A stretch of DNA of 56,642 nucleotides, counting the filler, from Sphacelaria rigidula (lineage: Eukaryota): assembly GCA_964200075.2 (NCBI GenBank). It is 4 parts of 4 records of this genome, joined end to end, with 100 filler letters (N's around TTAATTAATTAA, not from the genome) between each part and the next. Parts side by side here need not be neighbours in the genome. Positions count along the whole stretch, not along the records: positions 1 to 14,091 come from CAXNAA020002464.1; 3 more parts are not named here. One strand, written 5' to 3'. Below, in pieces: positions 1 to 50,653 of this stretch (position 1 is its first letter; every line of letters starts with the position of its first letter). The notes beneath the pieces are model-generated. The model did not search any database. It saw only the letters and a list, made by a program, of their open reading frames with translations, and was not told the origin of the DNA. A program made the translations under genes and the position numbers.

Positions 1-283
1 GAGGTCAATGGTCTTGTGACTATGGCATGCATGATCATGAGTACACCCCCCCCTCCCCGCTCACCCTCTCCCGATCGTAGCATGGCATCAAGCTGTCCCA
101 GACTTCGAAGTACACACGTCTACACAAGTGCGAACAAATACGTGATCGAGCTCGTAACAGAGATACTATGAGCCATTTTCGTCAAACGCAGGCGCAGCCC
201 TTAACAGAAGTATAGAGGGTTTTGGAAAGGCATATCATTCTTTTTGTCAGCGTAACTCTTTGGTCAATCTGCGTGTTAACCTC

Positions 284-512
284 GTGTTGTGTTGTGTGTT
301 GTCGTCCCATTTATTCTGGACGCCAGTTTACACCTTTCGATATACGTGGGCGCACCAGCCGCGGTGGGGTCACACAGGAGGAAGGTCAATACAGGAGCTT
401 TACATTTTTTATTTTGTTTCTAGTACCCCACCTTCCCTCTGCGGTACTTGACGTTATTTTTATCGCGAGAGGGGTTCAGAAATCCCTTTCCCTCGTCGAT
501 CGTTAAGCCGAA
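284..512 (-). mobile_element. Truncated second copy of the SINE body
   Basis: Reverse complement of ~8835-9060 (GTCGTCCCAT.TATTCTGGACGCC, CACACAGGAGGAAGGTCAA). Confidence 0.75.
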
Positions 513-679
513 TGTTTCGTGATCTTGACATTCCCGAACATACTTGATACTCCTCAGCGGTTTGACTTTCGCATATGTATGTGGTTTGTGTGTCGGGAAA
601 AGAGTGTTGTAAAAGGTTTTCCCCATGAAACACGGGATTTGGTAAATTGTGGATGTTTTTTTTTTTAGGACGAATCTTG

Positions 680-1020
680 GGAACGTTCAAAAGCATCAAA
701 ATATTCTCGAGAACAATTGCAAATGAACCATCTGGCCGCGATGTATGGCCTCGCTAATCCGCAAAAAAACATCTACCTGCAATTTGTAGAATCTCGTGTT
801 GACAGGGTGTTCCGACAAATATTGGCTCTACTATTTCTTTTCGTACGGGGATGAACAGAGGTTGAAATTGTTCGGTATGCGTATTAAACACAGACAGGAT
901 TTTTTCATGAATTTTAGATGAATTTTGTATTGAGGATGAGCGAAGCCATAGATCACGGCCAGAGAGTGCACTCGGAATTTTATCCCGACTTTTTTTCGAT
1001 TATTTGGCAGGTTCCCCAGG
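680..1020. repeat. Diverged fold-back/MITE
   Basis: 731-775 pairs with 915-963 (TCTGGCCG.GAT.TATGGC.TCGCT.ATCC). Confidence 0.6.
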
Positions 1021-1136
1021 CCCATCCTGAACAAGCTTCCATCCGCGATTTTGTAAAATCACGTGTTGTGAGATGCAAGCGCCGACAAAGCGTTCGGCGA
1101 CGAGAAAGACGCGTTTCCGAATCTCTTCGACAATAC

Positions 1137-2700
1137 AGGCTGGTTCACGCTTTCGACCCAAAATTCACTCAACCGCAAATGGTCACGCCCATTCTTGGAG
1201 TTGGACTCTGCAAATATGCACACATATACCATGGGTTTCGGACTTTCAAAGGAATGAGGTTGTTCGGCTTTATTTTCGCCGTTCATCGGAGTCTCAGGGT
1301 TCTGGGGAGTAATATGCCGCTCTTGGGTCCCCGAAATCCGGGGAAACTATGAAGAATAAGTATTCCCATCCTCGAAAAAAGGTTTCGAAATGGCTCACAG
1401 TAGAGGATATGTGTGCAAATCATCAGCCTAACCCCAAGAATTGGCGTGGATATTTGGGCTTTCATGTGACAAAGTGGGCTTGACGACTACACAAACCCCG
1501 CTACATCGTTGTGATTTCGAAACGACGTCTTTGGGTACGTTTGGTGTTAGAGCGACCCCAGTGCATCAGATTTTGAGAGTTACGCGACGACATTCCATGC
1601 AGATGTTCCTTGGACTACGCCGGGACGTGTTTTGATGCATATGTGTATTATGTATACGCGTATGTGTGTGTATACATATATATATATATATTCTCTTTTT
1701 AGACGTTCTGTACCGGCTTCCGGGAGACCCCCGCGGAAGCCGGTGCAAAGGGCGGATAAATCATGTTCCTCCTTCGGAACATAAAAAATAATACGTATCA
1801 AACTGCCAAGTATGGGGGCGATCGGAACCTACCTATGATAGATGCAGAGAACGCAGTCGAGACATTTTACGGGTCTTCAGTGCGTGTCATCAATGAATGG
1901 AAAGCCGACGACGCCAAAATAACCCCACATCACCGAATTTCAGCTGTCTGAGGTATAATGAGATCCTATGGAATCCATTCTCAAATTTGCGTTTTCTCCC
2001 GTTAGCACTCATGCTACGATAGGAGGGGGGGGGGGGGGGGGTTGGGGGGGGCGTTGATTCCGCGAAAAAATGGGCTCCTAGCTGCTTCAGGCGACCTAAC
2101 ACACTCGCGGTGCGCTTGTATTTGGGTAAAGGTGGTGTCAAGCTGTGTGAAGCAGTATGAATGAGCACTATTTATCGGAAGCAAGCACGTTCGAACAACC
2201 GTTACTGCTTTCAATGACGATTTCGAGTGGAATTTCGTGGAAGAAAACGGCCCCAATTACCCCCCCCCCCCCCGCCCCGCACGACCCCGGCCCCCCGCCC
2301 ACCCACTCGCGGCCGGGCGCTCTACATCTGCGCCTCTGCCGCGTTAAGTGCANNNNNNNNNCCCCCCCCCCCCCCGCCCTATCGTAGCATGACCCGTACG
2401 TTCCCGAGTTGGTGAAGGTTACTACAATGTGAAGCATGTGGGGATTAGGTCGAAATCGCGTTGGGAATTCATATTTTTGAACTTCGGAAACAATGGCAGG
2501 GCCGCTGGTTGATCGAGGTACCTTTTTCTTCCCCCTTTCATCCTTAGCGCCACCACTATGATTTAAAACGAAAACCCGGCTACGTCACCCTGTTCAGTTG
2601 CATGGTGGTCGGGGTGATGTCATGCGCGAGACCATTGGGTACGTATCGCGGAAAGCATTGCCGACTAATGAATTTTGGGCCGAAAGCGTGAACCAGCCTG
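1137..2700. mobile_element. Probable non-autonomous TIR element (CAGGCTGGTTCACGCTTTCG ends) with nested fold-back at ~1175-1455 and poly-G insert at 2010-2392
   Basis: ~30-bp inverted ends at 1137-1167 and 2669-2700; left end follows TA; the same end motif followed by TA occurs at ~54472-54488. Confidence 0.5.
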
Positions 2701-2754
2701 TTGTTGTGGTGCCGTAGTAACAACGTATTTGTTATTTTTGCGTGTACACGGAGT

Positions 2755-2964
2755 GTAATGCGTGAGAGGACCGCGTGCTTAGAGGACCGCACCGTAGTTC
2801 AAAACACCTCAGGATCGACGTTTTCCAAAACCAATCGGGCCAGTCCCTGCAGGTACCACGCTCCTGACCATAAACCCAACACTAACCCTAACTCTAACCC
2901 TAACCATAGGGATGTTCAAATTCCGATGCGGTCCTCTAAGCACGCGGTCCTCTCACGCATTACA
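2755..2964 (+). mobile_element. MITE with ~38-bp TIRs (TGTAATGCGTGAGAGGACCGCGTGCTTAGAGGACCGCA), 5-bp TSD and internal TAACCC repeats
   Basis: TIRs at both ends, flanked by CGGAG/CGGAG. Confidence 0.9.
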
Positions 2965-3448
2965 CGGAGGTGACTGAATTCTGGGTTCCTGGTTCGAGCG
3001 AGCGGGATGCAACGGGTATATTATTGGTTTAGTGGTACTCTGCATTGTTGCTTGACGGTGTATTTGACAGGTATGGTATTGGAAGGTGTGTGGTGCGTGT
3101 TCATTTCACAGGCCAAATAAATACGGTACTTTGTGGCCAAAAGCAGATATAGCGGTGCAATCTAAGTAATGGGACCAATCGTCCGATCACGCCTCCGCGC
3201 GAAACTTCAAAATTATTTGATGGAAAACTGCCATTTTACCCGTTACATTCGTGTGCGCCTATCTATCCACAATACATGAGACACACACCCACACACCCAC
3301 ACACCCACTTGCGCATACGCTTCACAGGCACAGCTTTGACTCGTCTTTCCTCTAGACAAGGATCAAAGCTATACATACCTCCAGTGCGCAAATAGACGTT
3401 ACTATACTCCTGCAATAACCGCACTCGATCAGTGTGACACTAACCAGG

Positions 3449-3878
3449 ATGAAGATCTCTACTCTTTTTCTGCGTGGTACTCTGCTGTTGTTTGCGGCCG
3501 CCGTCACTACGCTAGGCGCGTCTGTGTCTGTAGAGGACCTAGCAGAAATGCTTGAAGATCAGCTCGCGGAAAAGATCGACAAAAAACAGGGGCCTGCCCC
3601 TCAGCCTCCGGGTATTGTATTCGAGCAATCCGGCGGCGAAGATGCCATCACCGACAGAGGAACGCTCTCGCCGTTTCCAGCCCTCATGGCTCGTAGAGTA
3701 GTAGACACCCCTCCCATGACCGAATCTGGTGCAAGTGGCGATGGAAGGCACGTTGACGGCAAGGAGACGGCTGGACCCTTCAACGACAAGATGTCAGGCG
3801 CCGATTCCGCCGGGCTCGAGCTCGCTATCGCCGCCGCTGAGGGAGGACCTCTGCAAGAGGTCTCACAGAGCACTGAAG
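3449..3878 (+). CDS. Exon 1 of an uncharacterised signal-peptide protein (acidic, low complexity)
   Basis: ATG at 3449 gives MKISTLFLRGTLLLFAAAVTTLGA, a signal-peptide-like N-terminus; ends at donor GAAG|gtacgg (phase 1). The ORF-track extension to 4006 is probably intron read-through. Confidence 0.7.
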
Positions 3879-4630
3879 GTACGGCTCATGACGCTGCCTG
3901 CACGCGTATTATACGACTGTGTGCTACAGCGCAGCACAGTGGATATTTTGCGTTGAATGGGGGCGGTCGATTAGACGTTATATACAAATGTTGCTTGCCA
4001 AAGTGATGTGATATAGTATACGTCATGCGCGTTATTTCCTGTATCATCTATAAATTCGGAGCGTTGGCAGCATCGATCTGGTGAGTGCACACAACAAGAG
4101 CGGATATCGCTGTTCCACTGTTGAGGACTCGGCTCCATAGGGTACTAACCAGACACAGCAGTGTGATGGGTGGGATCTGGTCGCCCTTGAGAAGGCTCTT
4201 TCTCCTGCCGGCGTGGAACGGCGTGCCCACTTTGACCATTTCCACGAGAAGTGGTCCCAGCACCATTTTTACAACCCGCGTTATGGGCGGCGTCCAACAA
4301 ATGGATCTTCTTGGATGTTGGATCATTTGGCCGCCGCGACTGGCTGTACACTACTACAACCCAGTACTCACCACCCGTGTGTTTTGCTGCGGATTATGAT
4401 GAGAGCTCTGACCCCGATGTTGTCGAGAGGGAAGCCTCTCTGAATATCCCAATTGCATCACTACATTGCGGCGAGACGCTTATACAAGACTGTAATGCTT
4501 GGCTGAGTAGCAACGGCAATCCTCGAAAGTCGACATCGTATATTTCTCATTACTGATGGCGGCGGGCGCGGCAGAGGCGCCTGAGATCTTGTCCTTGCTC
4601 CCGCCTGGCATCAAGTTACTACTCTACTTG

Positions 4631-4871
4631 GCATTGCCGCCCTTTCTCATGAGCTGCATATCTGGATTCTTCTCGGCTGCACGCGTGTTCTGGGCGTCAA
4701 CGTGCATTTTAGCGGCGCTTGCTTCCACACACTCCACGAAAGAGACGAAATCGGCGTCCTTCCGTGGCCGAAGTGGACGCGAGCGCCGGTAGAATGCACG
4801 TTGACGCCCAGAACATGGCTGGAGCCGAAGAGATTAAGTCAAGATATGCTGTCCATGAGAGAAGGCGATGC
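4631..4871. repeat. Intronic fold-back hairpin H1 (candidate pre-miRNA/hpRNA)
   Basis: 4686-4708 is the exact reverse complement of 4793-4815 (23 bp); imperfect pairing extends to about 100 nt per arm. Confidence 0.85.
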
Positions 4872-4929
4872 TTCGAAGCAAGGGAGTGGCGGTAGGTCGC
4901 GGCATAGGATGCTGTCCATTTTGCTAGTA

Positions 4930-5256
4930 CTAGAAAATGTGTGCAGCAATAATATATGGTGGTGCTCATGAGGCGTTCCTGCAGTTCTGTGAAACCTCTT
5001 GAAGAGGTCCTCCCTCGACGGCGGCGAGCTCTAGTCCAGCGGAATCGGCGCCTGACATCTTGTCCTTGAAGGGCCCAGCCGTTTTCTGACTGCCAAGTCA
5101 GCAGGCGGCCGAACCCTTCAGCGACAAGATATCAAGCGCCGATTCCGCCGGACGAGAGCTCGCCGCCGTCGAGGGAGGACCTCTTCAAGAGGTCTCACAG
5201 GACACTGCAGGAACGGGTCATGAGCACCACCATATGTTGCTGCACGCATATTCTAG
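4930..5256. repeat. Intronic fold-back hairpin H2 made of an inverted copy of the exon 1 3' end
   Basis: 39-bp perfect stem 4994-5032/5155-5193, apex CTGACT-GCCA-AGTCAG; arms homologous to 3770-3910. Confidence 0.9.
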
Positions 5257-5491
5257 GATCGCGTACTATAGCGCAGCACAGCAAATAGTTGCGTTCACTG
5301 GGTACGGTCGATTGGAAGTTGTGTGTTGCTTACCAAAGTGTTGTAAAATACTGTCACGTGGTTACATGGATGTTATTTCCTCTGTCAACTGTAACTCGGA
5401 GCGTTGGCAGCACCGATCGGGAGAGTGTTGCACAAAAGGAGCGGATGCCACCGTTCCACTGTCAAGGGTCCTGCACGATCGATAGGGAGCC

Positions 5492-5701
5492 TGAAATGCG
5501 TGAGAGGACCGCGTGCTTAGAGGACTGCATCGGAATTTGAACATCCCTATGGTTAGGGTTAGGGTCAGGGTTAGTGTTAGGGTATGGTCAGGGGCGTGGT
5601 ACCTGCAAGGACTGACCCGATTGGTTTTTACAAACGTCGATCCTGCGGTGTTTTGAACTACGGTGCGGTCCTCTAAGCACGCGATCCTCTCACGCATTAC
5701 A
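5492..5701 (-). mobile_element. Second copy of the TAACCC-bearing MITE
   Basis: TSD GAGCC/GAGCC; the paralogous unit at ~7148 has an empty site with a single GAGCC. Confidence 0.9.
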
Positions 5702-6633
5702 GAGCCAACCAGACACAGCAGTGTGATCAGTGGGGTCTGATCGCCCTTGAAAATGTTCCTTCTCCTGCCGGTGTGGATCGGCAAGCGCAATTTGTCCACC
5801 TTTACGATAAGTGGTCCCCACACCATTTTTCCAACCCGCGTCATGGGCAGCATCCAACGAATGGATCTTCTTGGATCTTAGATCTTTTGGCGGCCGCGGC
5901 TGACTATATAGTATTGATACTACAATCCAGTACTTACTACTGCTTGCATGTTTAGCTGCAGATCATGATAACAAGAGCTTAGACCTCGATTTTGTCGAGG
6001 GGGAAGACTCTCTGTGCTCCAGCTACATCACTCATCAGCACATTGCGACGAGAAGTTTAAACAATACCGTAACGGTTGGCTGAGTAGCAACAGCAGTCCC
6101 CGAAAGTCGACGTCAAATATATTGTATTTGTTTTCGTCGACACCGTTTCTTCCCACACCTCAGAAAGTTCAGAGTTTTCGGGACTCTGCGCTGAGACTTC
6201 TCCGAGAATGAACCCGCTTGATATTTATCCGAAGCTTCATTTTGGGAGCAGCCGAAGAAATCTGACTGCAAGGCAGCTATTCGGAGAGCTGCGCCGTGAA
6301 TACGCCGTAACGCTCGGGAGCATTTGACAATCACCAGGTACTTTGCCAACCCCGACAATTCCCGGATCTCCGAAAAAACAGTGTCGATAATAATAACCGG
6401 CCTTGATAACAGATATAGCAGCGGGAGCTAGTCCGGCGGTATCGGCGCCTGAGATCCTGTCCTTGCCGTTGCCCAGGTGTCACTTCCGTGGCCGAAGTGG
6501 ACCCAAGCGCCCCTAGAATGCACGTTGACAACCAGAACACGGCTAAAGCCGACAGTCAAGATATGCAGTCCACAAGAGAGGACGATGATACGAAGCAGAG
6601 GAGTGATATGGTGGCAGGTGGAGGCATATACTA

Positions 6634-6926
6634 CTGTAGCACACAGCACATGAAAAGTATGTGTGTGCAGCAACGTGGTGCTATGAGCCGCACCTCGCGT
6701 GTTTGTCTGCGACGTCTCTTGAAGAGGTCTTACCCCAGCGGCGGCGATGCTAGTTCCGCGGTATCGGTGCATGAGATACGAAAGATCTCAGGCGCCGATA
6801 CCGCGGAGCTAGCACCGCCGCCGTTGGGCTAAGACCTCTTCAAGAGGTGCCACACAACACTCGAGGTGCGGCTCATGAGTACCATATTGCCGCACGCACA
6901 TATCCTAGTAGTCCCGTGTGCTGCAG
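6634..6926. repeat. Intronic fold-back hairpin H3, paralogue of H2
   Basis: Arms pair around apex TGAGAT-ACGAAAG-ATCTCA (6772-6790); homologous to 3790-3930. Confidence 0.88.
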
Positions 6927-7364
6927 CACAGCCAAGTCGATATCCTGTGTTGACTACGTACGTATGTACTGTATGGTCGACTAGATTTTTGCGTTACTTG
7001 TCAAAGCGATATAAATCACCGCACTTGCTTCCACGGCCGTTTTTCCCTCTGTCGACTATAATTCGGAGCATTGGCAGCACCAATCTGGTGAGTATCGCCA
7101 AAAAAAGCTCATGTCGCCGCTCCACCGTCAACAGCTCGGTTTCATTAGGAGCCAACTAAACACGGCAGTTTGATGGGTAAGATCTGGTTGCCCTTGAACA
7201 CGCTTATTCTCTCGCCGGTGTGGATCGGCACGCGCACGTTGTCTATCCTTACAAGTGGTTCCAGCACCACATCAACCACCCGCGTCGTGTACGGTATCCA
7301 ACAAACGGGTTTGGATCTTGGATCTTTCGGTCGCCGACTGCCTACACAGTACTTCTGTACATGT

Positions 7365-7580
7365 TGTAATGCGTGAGAGGACCGCGTGCTTAGAGGACCG
7401 CATCGGAATTTGAACACATCCCCATGGTTAGGGTAGGGTTAGGGTTAGTGTTGGGGTTACGGTCAGGGGCGTGGTACCTGCAGGGACTGGCCCGATTGGT
7501 TTTGAAAAACATCGATCCTGCGGTGTTTTGAACTACGGCGCGGTCCTCTATAATATAGCACGCGGTCCTCTCACGCATTA
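7365..7580 (-). mobile_element. Third copy of the TAACCC-bearing MITE
   Basis: Same TIRs, flanks CATGT/CATGA. Confidence 0.88.
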
Positions 7581-8073
7581 CACATGAACCACGGGTGAGC
7601 ATCTATCCGGTCTGTCTACAGTAGCATTGTACGCATGAGTGTACAACAGTACGGGAACTTCACCCCGTTGAGTGTGGGCGATGTGCTTTTTCAGCAGTGC
7701 CTGTCGGTCACATGTACGACCAAGTACCACGAGGGCGCCGGGAATGTAGATCACGGTGTCGGGTCTGCGGAGTATACTTTGTCTGATGGAAAGATCACTG
7801 CTCCACACGTATGCCCATATTTTCTGTCACGAGCTTATATGTGCGTACACACTACTTGAACATACTCCATACTGTCATTCACGACGGCATACCACTGTAC
7901 TGTATGCTGTCGCCTGCTGCGTCGCATTGTACACGGCATGATAAAGGTGACCGCGTCCTGTCCGGACGCTGGACCCGCCCCGAATCTAATGCGACTACGC
8001 GTACAGTATTTGACCTTCCACACACTCACTGTACGTCTGTCGCTCCCTTCGCCTTGCTCGTGTGCGCGAACAG

Positions 8074-8171
8074 CCCCCGCCGACGACCGGAGGCGCGACG
8101 TGCCACAACAAGATGGTGAGTTTTGGACCAACGATGATGGAGATGAGGAGTCGGGCGTGGGCCACGATGAG
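8074..8171 (+). CDS. Probable exon 2 (APADDRRRDVPQQDGEFWTNDDGDEESGVGHDE)
   Basis: aacag| acceptor, phase 1 matches exon 1, GAG|gtgagc donor; an alternative donor lies at 8115. Confidence 0.6.
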
Positions 8172-8709
8172 GTGAGCACATCATCCGGAAGTATGGATGA
8201 CTTGAGATAGAAGACGGTTGCAGAGTTGAAATTAGAGTCAAGTCATGCATGGTCATCTTACTGGAACGTTTGAGGGTTTGCTCGGGACCATATATATGGA
8301 GTGATCGAATAAGCCGGTGATTGTCGTATATCTGACGTGTTTTTCACGTCCCGTTTTTTTGCATACAGAAAAGGCACGCTTGTTTCATCCGGCACAATCT
8401 AGACTGGTACGTAAGTTGGATCGAAATATACGAGGGTGGCGTATGAACCCATCTACGATTTTTTTCATGTACGGCAATGAAATTGTGACACATGATACTC
8501 AGGGTAGTACGTATTCTGCCGTCGATCTTACCTCCCGGTTGCGTACTCCGCCTTGTATAGGGATAGCGAACGTTGTCAACCACACCTCTGGTTTGCGGTT
8601 GTCAACCAGAGAGATCGAGTAGTAGTAGTAGTAGTCTATGATTCTAGCGGCCGCTGTAACCACGTACGTGAAGTTTACATGTTTTTCTGTACCGTATATT
8701 TGGCCGGTC

Positions 8710-9057
8710 GCCCCGGTGGCTCAGTTGGAAACGTCGAAACCTTCTGAAGGGTGGGTCGTGGATTCAATTCTCGGAGCGATCCGGGATTTTTTCTCACACC
8801 ACGCCCAAAAGTGGAGAGCAACTATGTCGTGGGTACACAAAATTCAACCCAACGGTCGACGAGGGAAAGGAAGTACTGAACCCCTTTCGCGATAAAAGAG
8901 AGGAAGCACTGCAGAAGGAAGGTGAGGTACTAAAAACGAACAAAAAATAAGAAAAAATCCCGTGTTGACCTTCCTCCTGTGTGACCTCGGCTGGTGCGCC
9001 CACATATACCGAAAGGTGTAGACCGGCGTCCAGAATATATGGGACGACAACACACAC

Positions 9058-9114
<57 letters not shown>
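8710..9114 (+). mobile_element. tRNA-derived SINE with (CA)n tail
   Basis: Head GCCCCGGTGGCTCAGTTGG (A box) and GGATTCAATTC (degenerate B box), body shared with 284-510, ends in a long CA repeat. Confidence 0.75.
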
Positions 9115-9116
<2 letters not shown>

Positions 9117-9654
9117 ATGATTCGCACGGAAACTCTTGCAGGTCGTGTGCGCTCGGTTGGGCCCCGAAGACTCGCCGTTGCTTCCCGGGAATTACCTGAG
9201 CTGTGATACCCCGATACCTCCATTCGTAGCGGGCCCTCGCCGCGAGGGGATATATTTGTCTTTATCCGAATGCGGAACGAAAATTCGCATCACAAACGGG
9301 CATGAGCCAAACGCATCGGGGGAGACTCTGTGGGAGGTAAGTGAGTTTGTCGAGAACTCTGTCTCTGTCTGTCTCTGTCTGTCTCTTTCTCCGTCTGGCT
9401 CAACCGAGGTAACAACGGCATACCGCTCTCCTCCTTATTTGCTAGAGATCTTCTTCTATGCGTCTGTACAACTGTTTTTCAAGCAAGCTCAGACACGGTC
9501 CATATTTTTGTCTTCCACGTCAGCTTTAGGAACCCGAATATTCACCTCACGCATAGGTGGTATTTACATTGCAATGTTGTCATCTGCGTTACATCACATA
9601 CCCCGCACTCCGCCGCCATCTGTCGCCCTCTATCGTTGAACGTTTCCGTTTCAG

Positions 9655-9816
9655 GTCGACGGCCTCGAGGAGGCCATGAAGAAGAAGAAAACATTCTTTC
9701 GCTGGTTCAACGAGGCGGGAAACACAGACAAAACGCGGGTCCCTCGGGGGGATGAGGTACAGCAGAAAGGACACAAGACAGCAGAGAAGCTCTCGGAATA
9801 TTGGCAGGATACGATG
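9655..9816 (+). CDS. Probable exon 3 (VDGLEEAMKKKKTFFRWF...YWQDTM)
   Basis: ccgtttcag| acceptor, 162 nt open in phase 0, ATG|gtgagt donor. Confidence 0.6.
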
Positions 9817-9992
9817 GTGAGTGTTGTGTTGAACGTTTGATGCTTCAAACGCGGAGACACGAGAAGCTTGCAATCGCAATTTTCCCGCAGGTTGTGGTAC
9901 TTGTAGTACTCTAGGGATGGCAGCGTGGGTTGTCATTTACTCTGTTTCAAGGGAGTGCTGGTTCCAGTGCTCACACAAACGTTTCCACCCCC

Positions 9993-10377
9993 GTCGTCTA
10001 CGGTACCTGTCACGTGACATATAGTGCTCAAGATTCTCACCTCAGAGTTGAGAACCTCCCTGGACTCGTCATCGGGCGTGTCGTCCTCCTGGTCGTTAGG
10101 CTCGTCGTTACGCACGGTAGGTGGGTTTTCGTCTCCACTATCGGCTGGTGAATCGGTTTTGAGTTTTTCGCCGTTGCCGAAACCTCCGGCTTCAACTTCT
10201 CGTTGTCAATCTCTTCCTAGAATTTCTTCAAGCAGCCGGTACCCTTTTTCCTGCTAGTCTCTTCTTCGCTCTCCACCTGAGATAAACAACGGCAGAGGAC
10301 GGCGGTGGGGGGGGGGGGGGGGAGGATAACAAATTTGTTGAAAAACCCCCCCCCCCCCCCCACCCACNNNNNNNNNN

Positions 10378-10417
<40 letters not shown>

Positions 10418-10763
10418 GTACTCATTTGTTGAGTACGCCCCCCCCCCCCCCACCCCGCCCCCGTATATCTCAGGTGGAGAGGGCAGAAGGGGCTAGCAGG
10501 AAAATGGGTACCCGCTGGTACAAAAAATCTTGGAATACATTGACAACGACAAGTCGAAGCCAGAGGTGTCGGCAACGACAACGAATCAAAACTGTTTCGC
10601 AGGTAGACGGTGTAGACGAAAACTCAGCCGAACGAGCGTGACGACGTAGGAGCCTAGCGACCAGGAAAACGACGCGTCGGATGACAGGCCGAGGGAGGTT
10701 CTTCACTCTGAGGTGAGAGTCTTGATCACCACTATATGTCACGTGGCACGTACCGTTGACGAC
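9993..10763. repeat. Inverted duplication of a ~300-nt degenerate exon-like unit around a poly-G/poly-C spacer
   Basis: 9993-10292 is a diverged reverse complement of 10461-10763; both copies keep ctcag|GTGGAG and CTGAG|gtgaga splice-like ends but contain stops. Confidence 0.85.
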
Positions 10764-13700
10764 AGAGCATAGGACAATTGGGTGAACGGTTGTACAAGTT
10801 GGACTATTTTTCGCGATAGAGATGGTGGTACGTTCCCGTGAGATGTGCTCATCTGAGTTACACAACACTAGGGGGATCAAGAGCACTTACACTCCAAGCG
10901 TTTGCGGCGTTGACGCTTCTCCTCTCGTTGGAAACTCGGGCATCAGCGGGTGGAGAAACCCGATGCCCACGGGGCACCATCCGCTTCTGCAGCAGTCGTC
11001 GTCACTGTTTGTGCAAGCTCTTGATCGCCGTTACTGTGTGTTTCAAATATCCCCGCATCCTATCTTTTGTTCTACCGTGAAAGCATACGCGACTTCGACG
11101 GCATTTGCTTGCAGTTCAGCTCGCAATTCCAGATATATTATGTACCCCACCAAAAACATGTTCTCATTGTATGTAGCAACACCAAAATAAACCATTTTTG
11201 CGCATCTCAAAACGTCTCGAAGCACACTGTACGATGCTACTATAACCCATGGGGGCACCACGGTCAGCGTTGCTGTAAGTCCCTCCTCACTCCCTGCCCG
11301 TTCCGGCGCGCGGCTTTCGCATTTTTCATCTCGCCCCAAATCAGCTCTTCATAGAAAAGGGCCGGATGACTCTAGCGCGCCGGAGGGCCCCCAGGGAAAA
11401 GAGCAAGGGCTTTCTCGGCTGGAAGAAAAAGGGCGCCGTTCTCTTCCAGTCTCCGAAACCGAAGGGACACTGGAAGTGCTTCTTCTCCATGTTCAGCAAA
11501 GCCGGGCGAGATATTCGAAATTCTGAGCTGGTGATTTCATCGAAGGGAAGGGTGGCGGTGCAGACAGTCGAGGGGGGAGTGCTTTGGGAGCCGTCTCTCA
11601 GTAGGTCGGATGCGGAGGTTCATGGGGTAGGCGGGGAGGGATTTGACGACCATGGCGTAGCAGGATAGTGCTCTATTGTCGAGTATTCAGTACAATTGTT
11701 TCGGTCGTACGTTGACCTTTTGTAACTGCCCTCGTATTTGTCATTTTGATGTAGGAGGTAAGCGATATTCTGTGGAGGATGGTTGTTGGGGGGTATGTTT
11801 TTTGTTTGTCACTGTTGATCTTGTCAAGTGGTGCTCGACTCTAGTCGGACGCCATTATCTGGGTTTGGTGTTCATTTACAACCATGGAATCACCATCGAT
11901 TGGCCTTCGCTCCTTTGTACTTTGAAAAATGGTCGATTCGTGATCGATTCATTGTCATCTTGGAGTTTGAGAGAGGCATCGTTGAACTAGTTGGGAAAGC
12001 GTCGGCGCCGCCGTTTTCGTATCGTGTTGTGTCGTGTTGTGTCGTGTCGTGTCGTGACTTGAGCTCCATCCAGTCGTCGGCACGACAGCGTTTGGTTCAT
12101 CACCTTTCGTGTGGTAGAGCTGAATATCCCTCACACATCGATATACAGCACAACACACACACATACACAAAGAGTTTCTACTTCAATACCGCATGTACTG
12201 TAGCGTCATCCTTATATCCTTATTCTCACGTTCCTTTAGCCTCACCGCGATCGCAACGCCCCACATTGACGCCAAGGCTTGAGCCCGTCATCGTGTGCTG
12301 CAACAAGTACCAGCAATGGCGTGCCGTTGTGTCGATCGGAAAGGACGGTATTACAGTTGTTGTACTGTCGCGGTACTAACGCAAGGGTTCAATAACATAT
12401 GGGCCGGCGTGGAAGGGTTAGTGTTCTATTGTCTCCACATCTCCGTGAAATACCGATTAATCATGACTCCCAAGGAAATAGTCGGATTGTTAACATCCAT
12501 TTTCTGCCAACCACTCGACGTCAAATCAGGTATGCTAGTAGCATCCTGTGCAAGCAGGATCCAGTTGTTTCCCTGAGCGAAACAGTTTGCCGATACTAAT
12601 ATTGTGCGAGTAAGAGAACCAGGTAGGGCCGTATCACAGATTCAGACAGCTAGGAGTAGTAGTTTGTAGACCCCTAAATTCAGTCAGTCTAAACATTATG
12701 GGCATGGCATAATATACGCACCACTTGGGAGATCTTCGTGTTTTCCGAGGAACGCAACTTATCAGGACCCACCGTCGATTTGACTCTTTGGTCATTGGTA
12801 AAAACAAGTGATGGTTGACTCGATCGGTGTTTCACCGCATAGTTACTACTATAACCCGTTATCCATTCGACTGTTGCCACTAGAGAAAGTTATCCGTGGT
12901 AAGCACTGTACATACTTCCTGTGTCGCGTAAGTTAGGTGAACCATTGGGTGCAGATCATATCTCCTCAACACAGGTGCTGATGATGCTATGGTTGGGTTC
13001 GTGCGAAGGACGTGGCGCAGACGATGAAAACAAACTAAAACAAGAAGAGATGGAAGTTTAGAGCTATTCCTATACCCAAAACAAGTTCAATTCAAATCCA
13101 ATTTTTGCGCAATTTTTTTTCAGTTTTTCGGGGGGAATTTTGGAACAAACGAAGTATATAAGGGCATACCCGCCGGGGGAGGGCCTGGTAGAGAGCAGGG
13201 ACGTCAGAAAGGCTGTCAGAGTACGACAAGGAGGCCTTCAGAACAGGTTGGAACAAACTAGAATCGGATCAAGCCCCAGTGACGACGAGTACGGCTTGCT
13301 GTTTTTTGTGTTTGTTTTTTCCAACGTTTTCTAGCCCCCGTCATCGGGGCGGAATACGCCATTTTCGGGTCGACTCAAAAGGCTTCGGTCGCTCGGCCGC
13401 ATGGTGAAAATGAACGTGGGTAAAGCAAAAAATGAGATTCGACTGAAAAAACGCCGAAGGATAATGAAAAAGAGAATTTAGGAAATAATCGGTCACGGTC
13501 ACGGTCAAGGGCCTGCACAAACATCGTTTACCTAACTTGTGGGACAGAGGGAGCAGAAACACCAGCTGAAAGCTCTAGAAGGAGGGGCGTTGAACAAAGA
13601 AGCAGTACAACCAGAGCAAGCTGAATGGGAAGATGAGAGCAACAACTGGAGTTCAAAGGAAGAGCGAAAGGAAGGCAAAAGACGAGGAAGGGAAGCCGGT

Positions 13701-14091
13701 CTCGACAACACCCTTCAGACCGGCCCACTTGCATGCAAAGGGAGATCGTGAAAAAAATCGAATACGACAAAATGAATCACAACAGAGTATCCAAGAGAAC
13801 CTGTGCTATGCCGTTTCCAATACTGTTGTTTGAACTGAAGACAGGGTAAATGGCAAGAAAGAGAGCATAAGAAAGGGAGCAAACTGAGCAAAACAACGAA
13901 AAACAGAATAAGATACAACGGAAAAGAAAAAATAAAGAATATGAAAAGGAAGGGGATGAAGAGGGACAAGAAGAACCATTTGTAGTGAGCCTGCAAAGGG
14001 TTCCTTCCTGAAAGCGATTGTACTGCAATAGGCGATCGCTTCTGCCCCAAACGCCCCCCCCCCCTCCACGGATGGTTAGACGCCCATGAGG

Positions 14092-14191
14092 NNNNNNNNN
14101 NNNNNNNNNNNNNNNNNNNNNNNNNNNNNNNNNNNTTAATTAATTAANNNNNNNNNNNNNNNNNNNNNNNNNNNNNNNNNNNNNNNNNNNN
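14092..14191. other. Artificial scaffold linker (44 N + TTAATTAATTAA + 44 N)
   Basis: Identical 100-nt spacer with stops in all six frames, present three times. Confidence 0.97.
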
Positions 14192-15225: not shown

Positions 15226-15817
15226 TGATGGCCTGGCTGCCATAACCACTGCTGTCGCTGGTGCTCGCGGGCAGTAAGCGTGCTGCTTCATTGTCCTTCG
15301 CTCGCCAGTATCATGGTGGTCCTTTACCCCATGAGAACAGCACAGGGCAGGGTCGATGACAAGTGCTGTACAAACACTCTGTATGTAGTTTGCACACAGT
15401 ATTTTAGCTCGCAGTTCAGGTCTGTGCATGGAGCGTGTTGCGAACAGCACTCGCTACGCAGTACAGATTGCCCACGCACCCAAGACTTGTAGAGACAGGA
15501 CCGCACTGACTGTACACATGGGACCACAGTATGAGCAGTGCTGCTGCTGTAGTGTCTACAGGGCTTGGGTGATTGGGCAATCTGTACTGTATTCGAGTGT
15601 TGTTTGCAGCACGCTGCATGCACAGACCTGAACTGAGCTACAATACTGTGCAAACTACATACAGAGTGTTCGTACAGCACTCGTCATAGACCCTACCCTG
15701 TGCTATTCTTATGGGGGTAAGGGCCACCGTGCTACTGGCGAGCGAAGGACAGTAAGTCAACACGCTGACTGCCCGCGAGCACTAGCGACAGCAGTAGTGA
15801 TGCCAGCCAAGCCATCA
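15226..15817. repeat. ~590-nt fold-back hairpin inside the hAT-like element
   Basis: Arms of about 280 nt pair throughout, e.g. ACACTCTGTATGTAGTTTGCACA with TGTGCAAACTACATACAGAGTGT. Confidence 0.92.
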
Positions 15818-28279: not shown

Positions 28280-28379
28280 NNNNNNNNNNNNNNNNNNNNN
28301 NNNNNNNNNNNNNNNNNNNNNNNTTAATTAATTAANNNNNNNNNNNNNNNNNNNNNNNNNNNNNNNNNNNNNNNNNNNN
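28280..28379. other. Artificial scaffold linker
   Basis: Same N44-TTAATTAATTAA-N44 spacer. Confidence 0.97.
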
Positions 28380-29800: not shown

Positions 29801-29912
29801 CACGGGTGGCCACTGGGGTGCCTGCAACCTCAAATTTGGACGTCACAGACATCGCACAAGGTCTGTATACCGTCCAAATTTGAGGTTACAGGCACCCCAG
29901 TGGCCACCCGTG
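29801..29912. repeat. 112-nt near-perfect hairpin (pre-miRNA-like or tiny CAC...GTG MITE)
   Basis: 42-bp stem with one mismatch, continued by an ACAGAC/GTCTGT inner stem. Confidence 0.9.
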
Positions 29913-31322: not shown

Positions 31323-31438
31323 CCCTTCTGGAACACTGAGGATTTTTACTTTTGTGAATCGGCATCATTTCAAGTCATTTTCAAGTCAAAATGATGCCAA
31401 TTCAAGAAACCAAAAATTGTCAGTGGGTTCCAAAAGGG
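31323..31438. mobile_element. piggyBac-like MITE
   Basis: CCCTT.TGGAAC...GTTCCAAAAGGG ends, palindromic interior, flanks TTAG/TTAA. Confidence 0.6.
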
Positions 31439-33329: not shown

Positions 33330-33723
33330 TTGACCAATGTCATCAGCGCATGCAGCGCGAACGTAGTTTACGAAGGAATCCCATGTGTTTAAAAAGGATA
33401 ATTGGCAGCCAAATCACGAGCAGCAGGTGGCTGCCGCTCGGCTGTTGTTGTACTGTTTGAGAATGACATCAGCATTGCAGAGGCGAATGCAGTCTACGAA
33501 GGATTTGTGGTCAAGAAGGAGAACCGGAAGCCAGATCACGAGAGGCAAGTGGCTGCCGACTGGCTGCTGGTGTACTGTACCAGCAACCACTGGTACAGTG
33601 TGCATCAACAACCTGACGGCAGCAACCTGCTCCTCGTTATCTAGGCTTCCAATCCTACTTCTCAAACACGGGGAATCCTTCATAGACTGCAATCGCGTTG
33701 CATGCGCTGATGACATTGGTCAA
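33330..33723. repeat. ~125-nt unit present twice in direct and once in inverted orientation
   Basis: Units ~33330-33455, ~33461-33585 and inverted ~33592-33723; apex CTGTACCAG-CAACCA-CTGGTACAG. Confidence 0.85.
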
Positions 33724-39414: not shown

Positions 39415-39550
39415 GTGGTTGGGGAAGGGGAGGGGAGAGAGAAAGGGGGGGCGGACAAGGGGGGGAANNNNNNNNNNGGGGGGGGGGGGGGGTAGTCGGT
39501 AAGCCTGCCGAGGGGCTGCTGGCGCCCGACGAGCTCGCCGAGGGCGGGGG

Positions 39551-42462: not shown

Positions 42463-42562
42463 NNNNNNNNNNNNNNNNNNNNNNNNNNNNNNNNNNNNNN
42501 NNNNNNTTAATTAATTAANNNNNNNNNNNNNNNNNNNNNNNNNNNNNNNNNNNNNNNNNNNN
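42463..42562. other. Artificial scaffold linker
   Basis: Same N44-TTAATTAATTAA-N44 spacer. Confidence 0.97.
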
Positions 42563-43473: not shown

Positions 43474-43654
43474 GCCATGTCTTATCAAATTGTTTTCGAC
43501 TCGAAAACGTACGGTGGAATCGCATTTTCTCGTGCCTGATACGTCTACGGCATCCATATGTAATCCATATGTGAACAGCGTGGACGAATCAGAAACGAGC
43601 GAATTCGATTCCATCGTACGTTTTCGAGTCGAAAACAATTTGATAAGACACGGC
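43474..43654. mobile_element. 181-bp palindromic MITE/hairpin
   Basis: Outer 49 nt of the arms match with 2 mismatches (GCC.TGTCTTATCAAATTGTTTTCGACTCGAAAACGTACG); pairing continues to about 80 nt. Confidence 0.85.
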
Positions 43655-45350: not shown

Positions 45351-45507
45351 TTTCCCCCTAAATCTACCGGCGCTAGCACTTTCACGTAAAACAGTAGTCA
45401 GCGTCAGAAGTTTTCAGAATTCGTAGTTGTTCTATTTTTTGAGCTTTCTGGAGTACCGTTCTTCACTTTTACTTGAACGTGCTAGCGCCGATAGATTTAG
45501 GGAGAAA
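45351..45507. mobile_element. ~157-bp MITE
   Basis: ~40-bp imperfect TIRs CCCTAAATCTA.CGGCGCTAGCAC.TTCA.GTAAAA. Confidence 0.75.
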
Positions 45508-46931
45508 GCGTAGGCCGCGCTCACACGGCAGTCCTTAAGTTGGTATTTTTGAGGCGATACGGACTTGATACCCCGTTTATCAGGAGGGTGTTATTGACCG
45601 TTTTTGGTCCAATGTAAGCAGTTTTCCCGCTCTTCCGCGACGAAACGGTAAATATTCAGATTAATGAATACGTATGAACTTCTTCACAATAACGATCGAG
45701 ATCGTGTTTCCCTCCTGTATGTACTGCACAGAGCTCAGTCTAGCATTTTCTGCTGATGGCCTACTTTCGGGTTTTTTTCGCACAACATTTTTCATGAGCA
45801 CTCGAAAGTGCTAGCATCGATACTTTTGGCAGAATAAGCAAACCGTACTCAAAGCACAATCGGCGAAGTTGGTGTCGTGGGGGCGATACCGGGTAAAGAC
45901 CCCGTTTATCAGGAGGGTGTTATTGAACGTAAATGGTCCAAGAAACATAGTTTTCCTGCTTCAGCGCAGTGAATAGGTGGAATTTCGGAAAAACAATCCT
46001 TTTTGAGTCTTCATTTATATTATGCAGATCGAGTCGGTCCACCGAAAATACCGAAAAGATAGAGCCTGGGGTCGTGTTTTTGCAGGACCCCCGAAGATCG
46101 GTCAAGCCCGTAACTCACTCATTGTTGCTCGCAGGTGATTTTTCTTTTAATATTTGTCAAGAGGTATAAAATATTTCCAGATGCCCATTTTTTGGCATCC
46201 AACAGTCACTGTGATGAGTGGTGGCAAGCAAAACAAATTCGGACAATATTTCATACCCTGGACGATAGAATACACGGTCGAAAAATGTACTGCGTACAAT
46301 ATGGAATATATTGTCTATTATTCCCTTGTCCATGGTATGCAATATTTGAGAAACTAAGAAATTACGGATTCTGCATACTTCTGACGCTGACTACTGTCGA
46401 GCTGTAACCAACCTCGAAACCTTTTGTAGTCTAAACTAAACTGTAGCAGTAGTCTGGCACGAAAAACCTTCTACGGACCCTTCGGCATCCGTGTCGATGT
46501 GCATTCAACGTGTTTCCCAGTTCCATCAAGACTGACAATTGTGAGCACACGTCAAACAAGCGATGTGATGCTCTGACCCCAAAGCCTACTCGAAGACTTG
46601 ATTCGTAACCTGTCGCTTGAGCTACCGATCACTTGCTTTTTTTAACAGATTTGGCTGCCATCAAGTGATGTGTTTCAGGTACCAAGCGCCGATGGAAATT
46701 TGAATGAGGGGTGGGTGGCGGAGGGTACTCATATGCTGCATGCACCTGCTGAGAATTAAAACACGTCCCCAACAGAGCATTGTCGGTTATCAAATCTCTC
46801 CTACATTGCGACAGGCGGGCCAAAAGCCTCTACGTTTCCTCGTCTACACCAAACCTCGCCTCCTCAGGCCAGCCAACATATATCACTCGGGAAAAATGGA
46901 CGGCACTGGAATGATTGAAGATTGATCTGAC

Positions 46932-47006
46932 CTTCGCATCTCCAACGCACAGGCGTCTGCCATCTTGAGACCATGCCATGCGAGTCAGCGCACAACGATC
47001 CACAAC
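46932..47006 (-). CDS. DYNC1I: Dynein intermediate chain exon ([25 protein letters not shown])
   Basis: tcag| and |gtcaga, phase 0. Confidence 0.88.
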
Positions 47007-50000: not shown

Positions 50001-50622
50001 GGCCTGATTTTTGGCCGCGGATCAAATAGGTCCATAGACAAAATTTGCACTACTCCACGTGCCTTGGGTGCGATGCTAAACACAGAGCCCAAGGATCGAT
50101 TCATACGGAGCGAATCATGATGTACACTAGAAGCAAGTGATTTTCAGAAGAATCTCTGTTCTTCCCATCCTTGAAGGAGCAAATGGATACAAGTTACAAC
50201 CAAGGCTGCAATGTCCACGTGAACGCCAAAATGGAGGCAAGAATATGCGGAATTCTACAAAAGCACCAACAAGCCTTGCCCCCCCCCCTCTGCTCCGTCT
50301 CGCAAGGGATGCGTGGTCAATGGTCAAACGACTAAGACTAAGGGAAGCAACAAATGAGGACCCCCCCCTTCCCACCCCCTGTTCCGTTCCGCTACTACGG
50401 TGCGGTACCTTGGGTTAGCATCCACCGATGTCACCAGTCCATGGTGTCCCAGATACCCCTGGCCGTTGCACGTGGGACGTGGAAAAACAAAGGCGGGAGT
50501 ATTCACGTAAGTCACGGTATTGATCAGCTACGGTCTGATGAAATATGCACCGAAATAACGAGGAGAAACAGCACTTATGGGAGTGTGCACCGTGAGATAC
50601 AAAGAAGAGCATGCAAAGACCA

Positions 50623-50653
<31 letters not shown>

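Follow-up and report, generated by a model that had tools for sequence, protein, structure and literature searches.

Exon-derived fold-backs form a nested palindromic array in a putative intron of an orphan gene of Sphacelaria rigidula

The locus lies in a window of 56,642 nucleotides (the whole stretch of Sphacelaria rigidula DNA analysed, assembly GCA_964200075.2), and its features are collected in Table 1. It begins with the putative first exon of an orphan gene, whose N-terminus resembles a signal peptide when judged by eye. Across the predicted 3878/8074 splice the frame stays open for 46 more codons, and the putative second exon falls inside an open reading frame at 7938-8210. A homologue search with the predicted exon-1 product, in which 2 of 606 near-length candidates and 0 of 6919 longer ones passed, gave two relatives only: P0001 (99%) and P0002 (68% identity, with all indels in frame). 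The similarity of these homologues to exon 1 fades past ...STEG, i.e., at the donor position. The fold-backs described below most likely sit within intron 1 of what would be an orphan secreted-protein gene.

An exhaustive HMMER search returned P0001's cluster and one further match, P0003 (E = 1.4e-05, 811 aa). We rejected P0003 as a relative because this cysteine-rich repeat protein matches at residues 86-118 only, a similarity best read as compositional. Neither this search nor those of the near-length and longer candidates found a paralogue of the host gene able to serve as a target. Pfam gave 0 families for three proteins and none for exon 1 or putative exon 2, the best score in the Atlas search was 0.76 (under Atlas's own lead threshold), and no names are attached to the protein clusters that hold the gene's relatives. 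A metagenome scan based on the exon-1 alignment yielded 596 matching pattern stretches, of which 0 were confirmed. The run X8, only guessed to be RNA, matched 8 of 30 bins; each of these is a repeat and exon 1 is not among them, so that the run is uninformative on expression.

The original prediction placed three long fold-backs, H1, H2 and H3, in this intron, and all three fold far beyond their shuffled counterparts. The minimum free energy (MFE) is -157.3 kcal/mol for H1 (z -14.78, 0/200 shuffles as good), -272.5 kcal/mol for H2 (z -27.08, 0/100) and -217.3 kcal/mol for H3 (z -22.09, 0/200). In its MFE structure H1 has a 97-bp stem with a 7-nt loop, and its arms are 77.6% complementary. The stem of H2 is 146 bp with a 4-nt loop and arms 87.0% complementary, while that of H3 is 126 bp, also with a 4-nt loop, its arms being 80.6% complementary overall and 90% over a 62-nt core. 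As ungapped runs the hairpin arms extend over 62-108 nt. There are seven other long fold-back loci in the window.

Table 1. Features of the locus, with positions counted along the window.
Feature	Position	Strand	Description
Putative exon 1, orphan gene	3449..3878	+	ATG start; 143 codons plus 1 base; ends in G, followed by GTACGG
Source segment of all copies	3711..3891	+	a = 3711-3780; b = 3781-3891 (exon tail + 13 nt past donor)
Putative intron 1	3879..8073	+	GT donor, pyrimidine tract, AG at 8072-8073; predicted
Short antisense copy of 3781-3826, fragment 1	4550..4597	-	repeat alignment
H1	4631..4871	+	segment a of exon 1 copied twice, inverted (4601-4746) and direct (4759-4833); extra segment x
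H2	4930..5256	+	5' arm 4930-5093 antisense to exon-1 tail and donor flank; 3' arm 5094-5256 sense
Unit 2, direct copy of b + intron head c	5094..6120	+	= 3762-4543, 74-78% identical; MITE-interrupted
MITE-like insertion	5491..5702	.	47-nt terminal inverted repeats, degenerate TTAGGG-like core; very high word depth
Insertion relative to unit 1 (4543/4550)	6121..6417	.	without unit-1 counterpart; partly repeated elsewhere in genome
Short antisense copy of 3781-3826, fragment 2	6418..6465	-	repeat alignment
Second H1 3' arm copy (a plus x)	6479..6625	+	5' arm absent
H3	6634..6926	+	5' arm (6634-6781) runs antisense to exon-1 tail and donor flank; 3' arm (6782-6926) is their sense copy
Unit 3, direct copy of b + c	6782..7353	+	67% identity with unit 1, 69-73% with unit 2
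Second intronic MITE copy	7365..7582	.	repeat alignment, word depth
Putative exon 2	8074..8210	+	continues the frame of exon 1; acidic tail of 46 residues; stop 8208-8210; predicted

H2 and H3 had been described as inverted duplications of the exon-1 tail and donor region, and the alignments bear this out. The antisense copy in H2 matches 3767-3891 to 5082-4966 in reverse orientation (84.0% over 125 nt, E = 7.6e-33), and that in H3 matches 3827-3889 to 6748-6683 (77.3%, E = 3e-06). The claim that two of the three fold-backs derive from exon 1 was right for this pair and too narrow as a count, since H1 derives from it too: in a colinear alignment its arms are one inverted and one direct copy of 3711-3780, at 69-71%. 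Direct copies were also found of 3762-4121 (at 5100-5462, E = 1.3e-61) and of 3783-4355 (at 6778-7353, E = 2e-46). The two short antisense fragments in Table 1 are additional to the three hairpins originally predicted, and fragment 1 joins the 5' arm of H1 as a single inverted a-x-b copy, where segment x is 4834-4910.

Read from these alignments, H1-H3 did not arise independently but are parts of a single nested-palindrome unit repeated in tandem. The unit is 1.3-1.7 kb long and occurs 2.5-fold in tandem, with two MITE insertions added later. A colinear copy, 4759-5058 = 6483-6777 (70%, E = 2e-33), spans the upstream flank and continues into the 5' arm, and therefore the palindrome was already in the unit at the time of duplication. 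The second H1 module has lost its 5' arm, with 17 nt in place of unit 1's 161 nt.

Genome-wide copy number was judged from word depth. The two intronic MITEs reach a depth of 1e5-1e6, a third copy lies upstream of the gene at 2754-2964, and the MITE at 5491-5702 has no counterpart at the corresponding site in unit 1. The insertion at 6121-6417 has a depth of 520-1462 versus about 60, with joints at 6391/6394. H1-H3 were themselves considered as MITEs and rejected, their bins standing at single-copy depth (52-68 in the run X1) and not at the multi-copy depth that, together with terminal inverted repeats and a target-site duplication, defines such elements.

Transposable elements could enter the history of the locus in another way, if a Pack-type element that captures gene fragments had brought the exon-1 pieces into the intron and amplified them locally. 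Nested inverted gene fragments resemble the captured fragments in plant Pack-MULEs, and the three MITE copies and the repeat fragment at 6121-6417 are signs of transposable-element activity at this very site. We nevertheless consider such a capture very unlikely: by depth in three runs the unit is single-copy outside the MITEs and 6152-6545, the repeat alignments show units bounded neither by terminal inverted repeats nor by a target-site duplication, and the copies keep contiguous intron in its native order, as in local segmental duplication.

Palindromes are error-prone in assembly, and the inversions might in principle be chimeric joins. Word depth in unique bins is 52-68 in X1, 9-21 in X3 and 11-34 in X4, and the same arrangement occurs at single-copy depth in contigs of these three runs, which come from two studies. 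Contigs of X1 and X3 span H1 and H3 whole, and in each of the two runs 3 of 3 apexes are covered with 0 differences; the apex of H2 is bridged by a 182-nt contig in X1, X3 and X4. No single contig among those listed covers all of H2, and the listed pieces of X4 bridge only the H2 apex (1 of 3). However, X4, from the second study, contains both arms of every hairpin. It differs from the window by scattered SNPs and therefore represents another individual, and we regard it as the independent witness because X1 may be the sample behind the window's assembly. Given the concordant contigs at single-copy depth, the arrangement is not a misassembly, and we rate the artefact as extremely improbable. 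In the explanation that we prefer (below), the locus is taken as a real, single-copy, lineage-specific structural rearrangement.

The four arms of H2 and H3 allow the history of the stems to be compared with that of the units. Among 16 quartet-informative sites, 14 pair the arms of one hairpin, and the other groupings are supported by 1 and 1. Gene conversion and selection for pairing account for this result equally.

Indirect sequence tests gave no sign of selection on RNA pairing. The 75 arm mismatches comprise 20 G:T (wobble on the + strand), 20 A:C (wobble on the - strand) and 35 transversions (binomial p = 1), and the MFE structures contain 24 G:U pairs on + and 18 on -. Between the two strains, polymorphism in H2 is no lower than in the flanks: X4 differs from the window at 3/172 and 7/356 positions in the H2 contigs, compared with 8/1325 and 1/591 in the flanks. 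Copies of b are 72-77% identical between units, versus 69-78% for the flanking intron copies, and are thus no better conserved. Neutrality is here argued from sequence alone and from small counts (75 mismatches and 16 informative sites), and the persistence of an 87% complementary, 146-bp stem, with paralogous units at about 70-78%, could reflect constraint rather than conversion.

The explanation that we favour, with a probability of roughly 60%, is a neutral nested palindromic duplication that may incidentally yield siRNAs, as opposed to a selected feedback device. In a first step the 3' part of exon 1, along with the head of intron 1, would have been copied in both inverted and direct orientation to build a nested palindrome: (a-x-b)' then a-x-[b']-b-c. 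The 1.3-1.7 kb unit would next have been duplicated in tandem to give 2.5 copies, with MITE insertion afterwards. The stems would be DNA palindromes whose arms were kept more alike than the paralogous units, most simply by arm-to-arm gene conversion, and apart from this the copies would have decayed neutrally. Presumed transcription of the host would then produce a + strand pre-mRNA with three dsRNA stems of 97-146 bp. These would be expected substrates for a single Dicer/AGO system like the one known from Ectocarpus, which would turn them into heterogeneous 21-nt siRNAs, of the hairpin-RNA type and not miRNA. Only the siRNAs from the H2 5' arm and from the two short antisense fragments would match exon 1 closely enough to direct cleavage of host mRNA. 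In our view such siRNAs would be an incidental by-product and raw material.

Targeting capacity was scanned by comparing the 21-mers of 3879-8073 with exon 1 in antisense and counting mismatches. The H2 5' arm contains 47 antisense 21-mers with at most two mismatches to exon 1 (6 perfect, 15 with one mismatch and 26 with two). In the 5' arm of H3 every 21-mer differs from exon 1 at 3 or more positions, and in that of H1 at 4 or more. By this count, predicted antisense targeting capacity is kept, among the hairpins, in H2 only.

The original prediction took the hairpins for a candidate self-targeting small-RNA locus or proto-miRNA cluster. In a functional cluster of this kind the dsRNA would be diced, products of the antisense arms would load into AGO and repress the host mRNA as a built-in negative feedback, and selection would keep the pairing. 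The 47 antisense 21-mers of H2 argue for such a cluster, as do the 14:1:1 co-variation of the arms and the presence of the structure in a second individual. We still hold it to be unlikely: the G:U bias is absent (20 vs 20), polymorphism in H2 is not depleted, one H1-type module is short of an arm, and H1 and H3 have drifted past useful complementarity to exon 1. In addition, loops of 4-7 nt lie under the 8-nt brown-algal minimum, and the stems are 'extended hairpins' of the kind that such screens reject. Small-RNA output from such a stem is plausible because, in the portions of PMC12867755 drawn on here, introns are over-represented as the source of RISC-bound small RNAs in Ectocarpus, and inverted-repeat regions gave 295 putative miRNA calls. 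It is distinctly unlikely that the locus is also the first brown-algal small-RNA locus to come from inverted duplication of a protein-coding exon, lying in its parent's intron and running a self-limiting loop (21-nt products of the H2 5' arm against mRNA 3762-3871) at the transition from hpRNA to miRNA.

The intronic antisense copies could also act as a splicing switch, if they paired with the end of exon 1 and its 5' splice site and so masked the donor. The donor is indeed covered by an antisense copy (3767-3891 vs 4966-5082, 84%), and the predicted duplex has an energy of -218 kcal/mol. The adjacent arm is, however, the better partner (H2R x H2L, -273 kcal/mol). In a global fold of 3449-5300, H2 is self-paired at 292 of 292 paired bases, 186 of 196 in H1 are internal, and the exon tail folds locally. 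Splice-site masking is thus thermodynamically disfavoured in this fold, and we rejected it as highly improbable.

Brown-algal miRNA criteria were taken from the relevant portions of PMC4513859 and PMC5381526. The stems of 97 (H1), 146 (H2) and 126 bp (H3) agree with one of these, trivially so for any long hairpin, and the loops of 7, 4 and 4 nt respectively conflict with another, 'loop >=8 nt, no extended hairpin'. The same criteria call for reads of both miRNA and miRNA*, 2-nt 3' overhangs and a single 5' end shared by at least 66% of reads. Judged by the brown-algal criteria, a stem of 97-146 bp closed by a 4-7 nt loop is a better fit to an siRNA-type hairpin RNA than to a miRNA. Arms homologous to a gene far beyond 21 nt, as expected of a proto-MIRNA born by inverted duplication, are found here (125 nt, 84%, E = 7.6e-33).

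Young plant MIRNA genes are reportedly born by inverted duplication of the target gene, as Allen and colleagues are said to have found in 2004; MIR161 and MIR163 are plant examples of this origin. The algal hairpins resemble them in that the arms are gene-homologous well past 21 nt, one antisense and one sense, and that the stem is long and near-perfect, so that heterogeneous siRNAs would be expected. They differ in that the copies lie inside the parent's own intron, on the same strand and tandemly repeated, and it is only a capacity that is seen here. Drosophila hpRNA loci, like other inverted repeats that serve as endogenous sources of siRNA, are long inverted target-gene duplications, sometimes tandem, that are diced to siRNAs. 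H1-H3 share with the Drosophila loci the long inverted duplication of a gene, here a candidate target, and the tandem repetition, but those loci have demonstrated siRNAs and targets, whereas H1-H3 are known as genomic sequence only. Human Y-chromosome palindromes are palindromic segmental duplications with arm-to-arm gene conversion, and here too an arm resembles its partner in the palindrome more closely than it does the paralogous copies (14:1:1) and RNA-level constraint leaves no sign. The scale is different, however: hundreds of bases compared with kilobases to megabases, and spacers of only 4-16 nt.

Brown-algal miRNAs evolved independently. That they often come from long intronic hairpins, as originally stated, agrees with the portions of two surveys used here, in which genes contain 75% of the miRNA loci, introns account for 93-97% of these genic loci and foldback means are 170-183 nt (PMC4513859, PMC5381526). 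Compared with those loci as characterized there (Tarver et al. 2015, PMC4513859; Cock et al. 2017, PMC5381526), H1-H3 are similarly intronic, on the host strand and long in their foldback (means 170 and 183 nt in the surveys), but their stems are longer and nearly perfect and their loops are 4-7 nt against the 8-nt criterion. They are clustered, whereas Ectocarpus miRNA loci rarely cluster, and they are exon-derived, unlike the surveyed loci without coding-gene similarity. In the same portions, the surveys of Ectocarpus (PMC4513859) and Saccharina (PMC5381526) describe not one locus that stems from a protein-coding gene, and they conclude an anonymous hairpin origin.

The locus shows that raw material for the plant-type route arises in brown-algal genomes: a long, exon-derived, same-strand fold-back in a putative intron, containing 21-mers perfectly antisense to its parent. 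If it is processed to small RNAs, it would offer a datable, stepwise hairpin birth (H2 being young and matching its target, H3 and H1 older and off it) together with a natural cis feedback, and if an exon-born small-RNA locus is true, it would be a counter-example to the anonymous-hairpin origin published for brown-algal miRNA loci. If it is silent or merely noisy, which is more likely, it is a nested palindromic duplication, intricate but of an ordinary kind.

The minus strand of H3 also matches the Rfam model RF03175 MIR3454, presumably an Ectocarpus family, a placement backed solely by the names next to it, esi-MIR3455b, miR3458 and miR3466. The match scores 82.5 bits and runs end to end over the 147-position model, in two mirrored blocks with about 15/21 bases identical each and, by eye, ~63/147 positions identical in all. 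We rejected H3 as a member, since 82.5 bits fall short of the family's gathering score (142) and long hairpins yield such matches anyway. The model does not match H1 or H2, even though H2 is homologous to H3 and better paired. MIR3454 is missing from the matches listed by the whole-window Rfam search, and literature under that name contained nothing on algae that we could find. Other hairpins in the window reach comparable bits per position against unrelated families, e.g., 52.8 bits over 90 positions for mir-8489.

All three fold-backs that the original prediction placed in the putative first intron fold far below shuffled sequence, with minimum free energies (MFE) of -157.3 kcal/mol for H1 (shuffles -80.3 +/- 5.2; z -14.8; 0/200 as good), -272.5 kcal/mol for H2 (z -27.1; 0/100) and -217.3 kcal/mol for H3 (z -22.1; 0/200). 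H2 and H3 were also proposed to be inverted duplications of the exon-1 tail and donor region, and this was borne out. Each consists of an antisense and then, 4-7 nt on, a sense copy of the exon-1 tail plus bases past the GT at 3879, and the self-comparison of the window yields opposite-strand matches of 3767-3891 to 5082-4966 (H2; 84.0% over 125 nt, E 7.6e-33) and of 3827-3889 to 6748-6683 (H3; 77.3%, E 3e-06). The claim that two of the three are antisense to exon 1 thus holds for H2 and H3 but not as to number: self-comparison and alignment give H1 an exon-1 origin too (69-71% identity, colinear with fragment 1, a short antisense copy).

The host reading frame opens with an ATG at 3449 and extends for 143 codons and one further base up to the donor at 3878, and its product begins with what, by eye, resembles a signal peptide. 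Among 5.8 billion proteins it has only two relatives: P0001, an allele (99%), and P0002 from a related species, a probable orthologue (68% identical, the sole indels being 1 and 2 residues long). Directly after …STEG the similarity to them fades, which supports both coding and an exon end there. No longer relative was found (0/6919 candidates), nor a Pfam family, a credible remote relative, a named protein among the relatives or a paralogue able to serve as a trans target. Joining 3878 to 8074, where a pyrimidine tract and AG precede, would leave the frame open for 46 further codons, so that frame and splice signals make an intron at 3879-8073 plausible.

To compare the locus with public data, contigs of four runs were set against window 3000-8900 and word depth was computed per bin. 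Unique bins have flat, single-copy depth in the DNA runs (X1 52-68, X3 9-21, X4 11-34). Single contigs of X1 and X3 cross H1 (3000-5023 and 4321-5023) and H3 (6366-7385 and 6453-7385) with 0 differences, and the H2 apex lies within a 182-nt contig (5003-5184). None of the listed contigs spans the whole of H2; de Bruijn assembly of an inverted repeat is expected to lack a full-span contig. X1 is possibly the window's source sample, which makes X4, from a second study, the independent witness. It has scattered SNPs relative to the window and contains both arms of all three hairpins, with only the H2 apex bridged among its listed pieces. That the inversions are an assembly artefact is therefore extremely improbable.

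The structure is real: the exon-1/intron-1 junction has been duplicated both in tandem and as nested palindromes, in an intricate arrangement. Its anatomy, taken from the self-comparison and two alignments, indicates that H1-H3 are not three separate events: one composite unit is repeated about 2.5 times, beginning on the + strand with a, b and c. The junction is a'/a in H1 and b'/b in H2 and H3.

Features of the locus in window order (a, b, c, segments of the exon-1/intron-1 junction; x, extra segment; prime, inverted copy; segments read along +), with + strand 21-mers of 3879-8073 antisense to exon 1
Feature	Position	21-mers at 0/1/2/3/4 mismatches
MITE-like element (~210 nt), copy 1	2754-2964	
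a	3711-3780	
b (exon tail + donor flank)	3781-3891	
c (intron head)	3892-4543	
b-part' x' a'	4550-4746	
Fragment 1	4550-4597	0/0/2/3/7
H1	4631-4871	0/0/0/0/3 (5' arm)
a x, first copy	4759-4910	
b' of H2	4930-5093	
H2	4930-5256	6/15/26/21/5 (5' arm)
b c, second	5094-6120	
MITE-like element, copy 2	5491-5702	
Insertion	6121-6417	
b-part', second (fragment 2)	6418-6465	0/0/8/10/2
a x, second copy	6479-6625	
b' of H3	6634-6781	
H3	6634-6926	0/0/0/6/8 (5' arm)
b c, third	6782-7353	
MITE-like element, copy 3	7365-7582	

Segment x (~75 nt) has no counterpart in the exon or in the P0002 orthologue. Because the match of 4759-5058 to 6483-6777 (70%, E 2e-33) spans the upstream flank and enters the antisense arm, the palindrome is older than the tandem duplication. 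The alignment places a 6-7-nt gap within the coding portion of all four hairpin arms of H2 and H3 and, following CTCATGA, 8-13 nt that are missing from the present exon/intron junction, and the P0002 read-through (…STEGMAHGHRHV…) is closer to the translated H2 copy (…GTGHEHHH…) than to the present junction; the parent junction was therefore altered after copying. The sense copy of H2 (5090-5200) keeps the exon frame for ~35 codons (…AEPFSDKISSADSAGRELAAVEGGPLQEVSQDTAG…) with the donor GT changed to GA, and that of H3 retains the GT with a broken frame. Judged from sequence, both are pseudo-exons, not alternative exons. Splice masking by copies that reach past the donor is, in our estimate, highly improbable.

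Could the hairpins nevertheless act on their host? The distribution of antisense 21-mers puts H2 alone, among the hairpins, on target at present; exon-1 sites at <=3 mismatches span 3762-3871. A small-RNA role is thus possible for H2, and none of the indirect tests lends it support. A run guessed to be RNA matches only repeats at the locus and has no bearing on expression. A selected RNA stem is expected to carry a G:U excess on its own strand. The arm alignments hold 346 Watson-Crick columns and 75 mismatches, namely 20 G:T (wobble in a + RNA), 20 A:C (wobble in a - RNA) and 35 transversions, and neither these nor the MFE structures (24 G:U on +, 18 on -) display such an excess. The second H1 module has suffered a loss: 17 nt stand there in place of the 161 nt of the first that include the 5' arm. 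Nor is H2 depleted of polymorphism: the H2 contigs of X4 depart from the window at 3/172 and 7/356 positions, the flanking ones at 8/1325 and 1/591.

The arms do co-vary. The four H2 and H3 arms align in 123 columns free of gaps, 16 of them quartet-informative; 14 of the 16 group the arms of one hairpin (the other two groupings have 1 and 1), and the exon agrees with H2 at 11 of these 14. The palindrome is older than the tandem copy, so the arms have undergone homogenisation. Gene conversion between adjacent inverted repeats accounts for this without RNA selection; selection for pairing is a possible alternative. We favour a neutral structural product, perhaps incidentally diced (probability about 0.6), and consider a selected self-targeting hpRNA or proto-miRNA locus unlikely.

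Transposable-element capture is very unlikely. The second and third copies of the MITE-like element were inserted later than the unit duplication. The element has 47-nt terminal inverted repeats, a core built of TTAGGG-like (telomere-type) repeats in degenerate form and, read by eye, 5-bp direct duplications at its flanks (CGGAG; GAGCC). Its summed word depth of 1e5-1e6, against ~60 in unique DNA, marks a very abundant family. Moderately to highly repeated sequence also occupies the insertion and 8516-8900; contigs in all three DNA runs connect 6391/6394 with 8703, which suggests that the two are parts of one dispersed element, a fragment of which was inserted into unit 2.

The minus strand of H3 matches Rfam RF03175 (MIR3454) over its full length (82.5 bits, E about 1e-17). 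We take MIR345x-346x numbers to be Ectocarpus families. Names of this Ectocarpus type (esi-MIR3455b, miR3458, miR3466) occur in passages of PMC4513859. Homology to MIR3454 was rejected: the score lies below the gathering score of 142, ~63/147 positions are identical by eye, H2, homologous and better paired, has no such match, a whole-window Rfam search does not list it, and other window hairpins score similarly, in bits per position, against unrelated families (for mir-8489, 52.8 bits across 90 positions; a G/C-run hairpin with mir-629, mir-BART16 and others). A match of H2 to archaeal SRP RNA (E 2e-10) is an evident artefact.

According to passages on brown algae (Tarver et al. 2015 PMC4513859; Cock et al. 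2017 PMC5381526), 75% of miRNA loci are genic, of which 93-97% are intronic and 90-94% on the host strand. In the same passages the mean foldback is 170-183 nt long, clustering is rare and so are families, no pre-miRNA has BLAST similarity to protein-coding genes, and candidates were rejected for a loop <8 nt or an extended hairpin. The locus shares place (a putative intron) and strand with these miRNAs, whereas its architecture is that of hpRNA/siRNA sources. Passages of PMC12867755 describe one AGO only, whose load consists mainly of 21-nt RNAs, a RISC enriched for intronic RNAs, and 295 new putative miRNAs from inverted repeats. Origin by inverted duplication of a coding exon goes unreported for brown algae in these passages. 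The rest of the window holds seven other long fold-backs (15226-15817, 10172-10577, 43474-43654, 29801-29912, 45351-45507, 33330-33723 and 31334-31425; arms 37-171 nt, 76-98% complementary), several with sub-threshold matches to unrelated miRNA families, in accord with the 'many hairpin regions' mentioned for brown-algal genomes in PMC4513859.

Linkers of 100 bases (44 N, TTAATTAATTAA, 44 N) at 14092-14191, 28280-28379 and 42463-42562 separate four segments of ~14.1 kb, so the genomic context of the hairpin locus is 1-14091 only and the other segments are possibly non-adjacent. N runs of 9-10 bases at 2353-2361, 10368-10377 and 39468-39477 interrupt long homopolymers of G or C and presumably mark unresolvable sequence. 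On the minus strand of 46830-54161, open frames with WD-repeat-like stretches are, by eye, reminiscent of a dynein intermediate chain.
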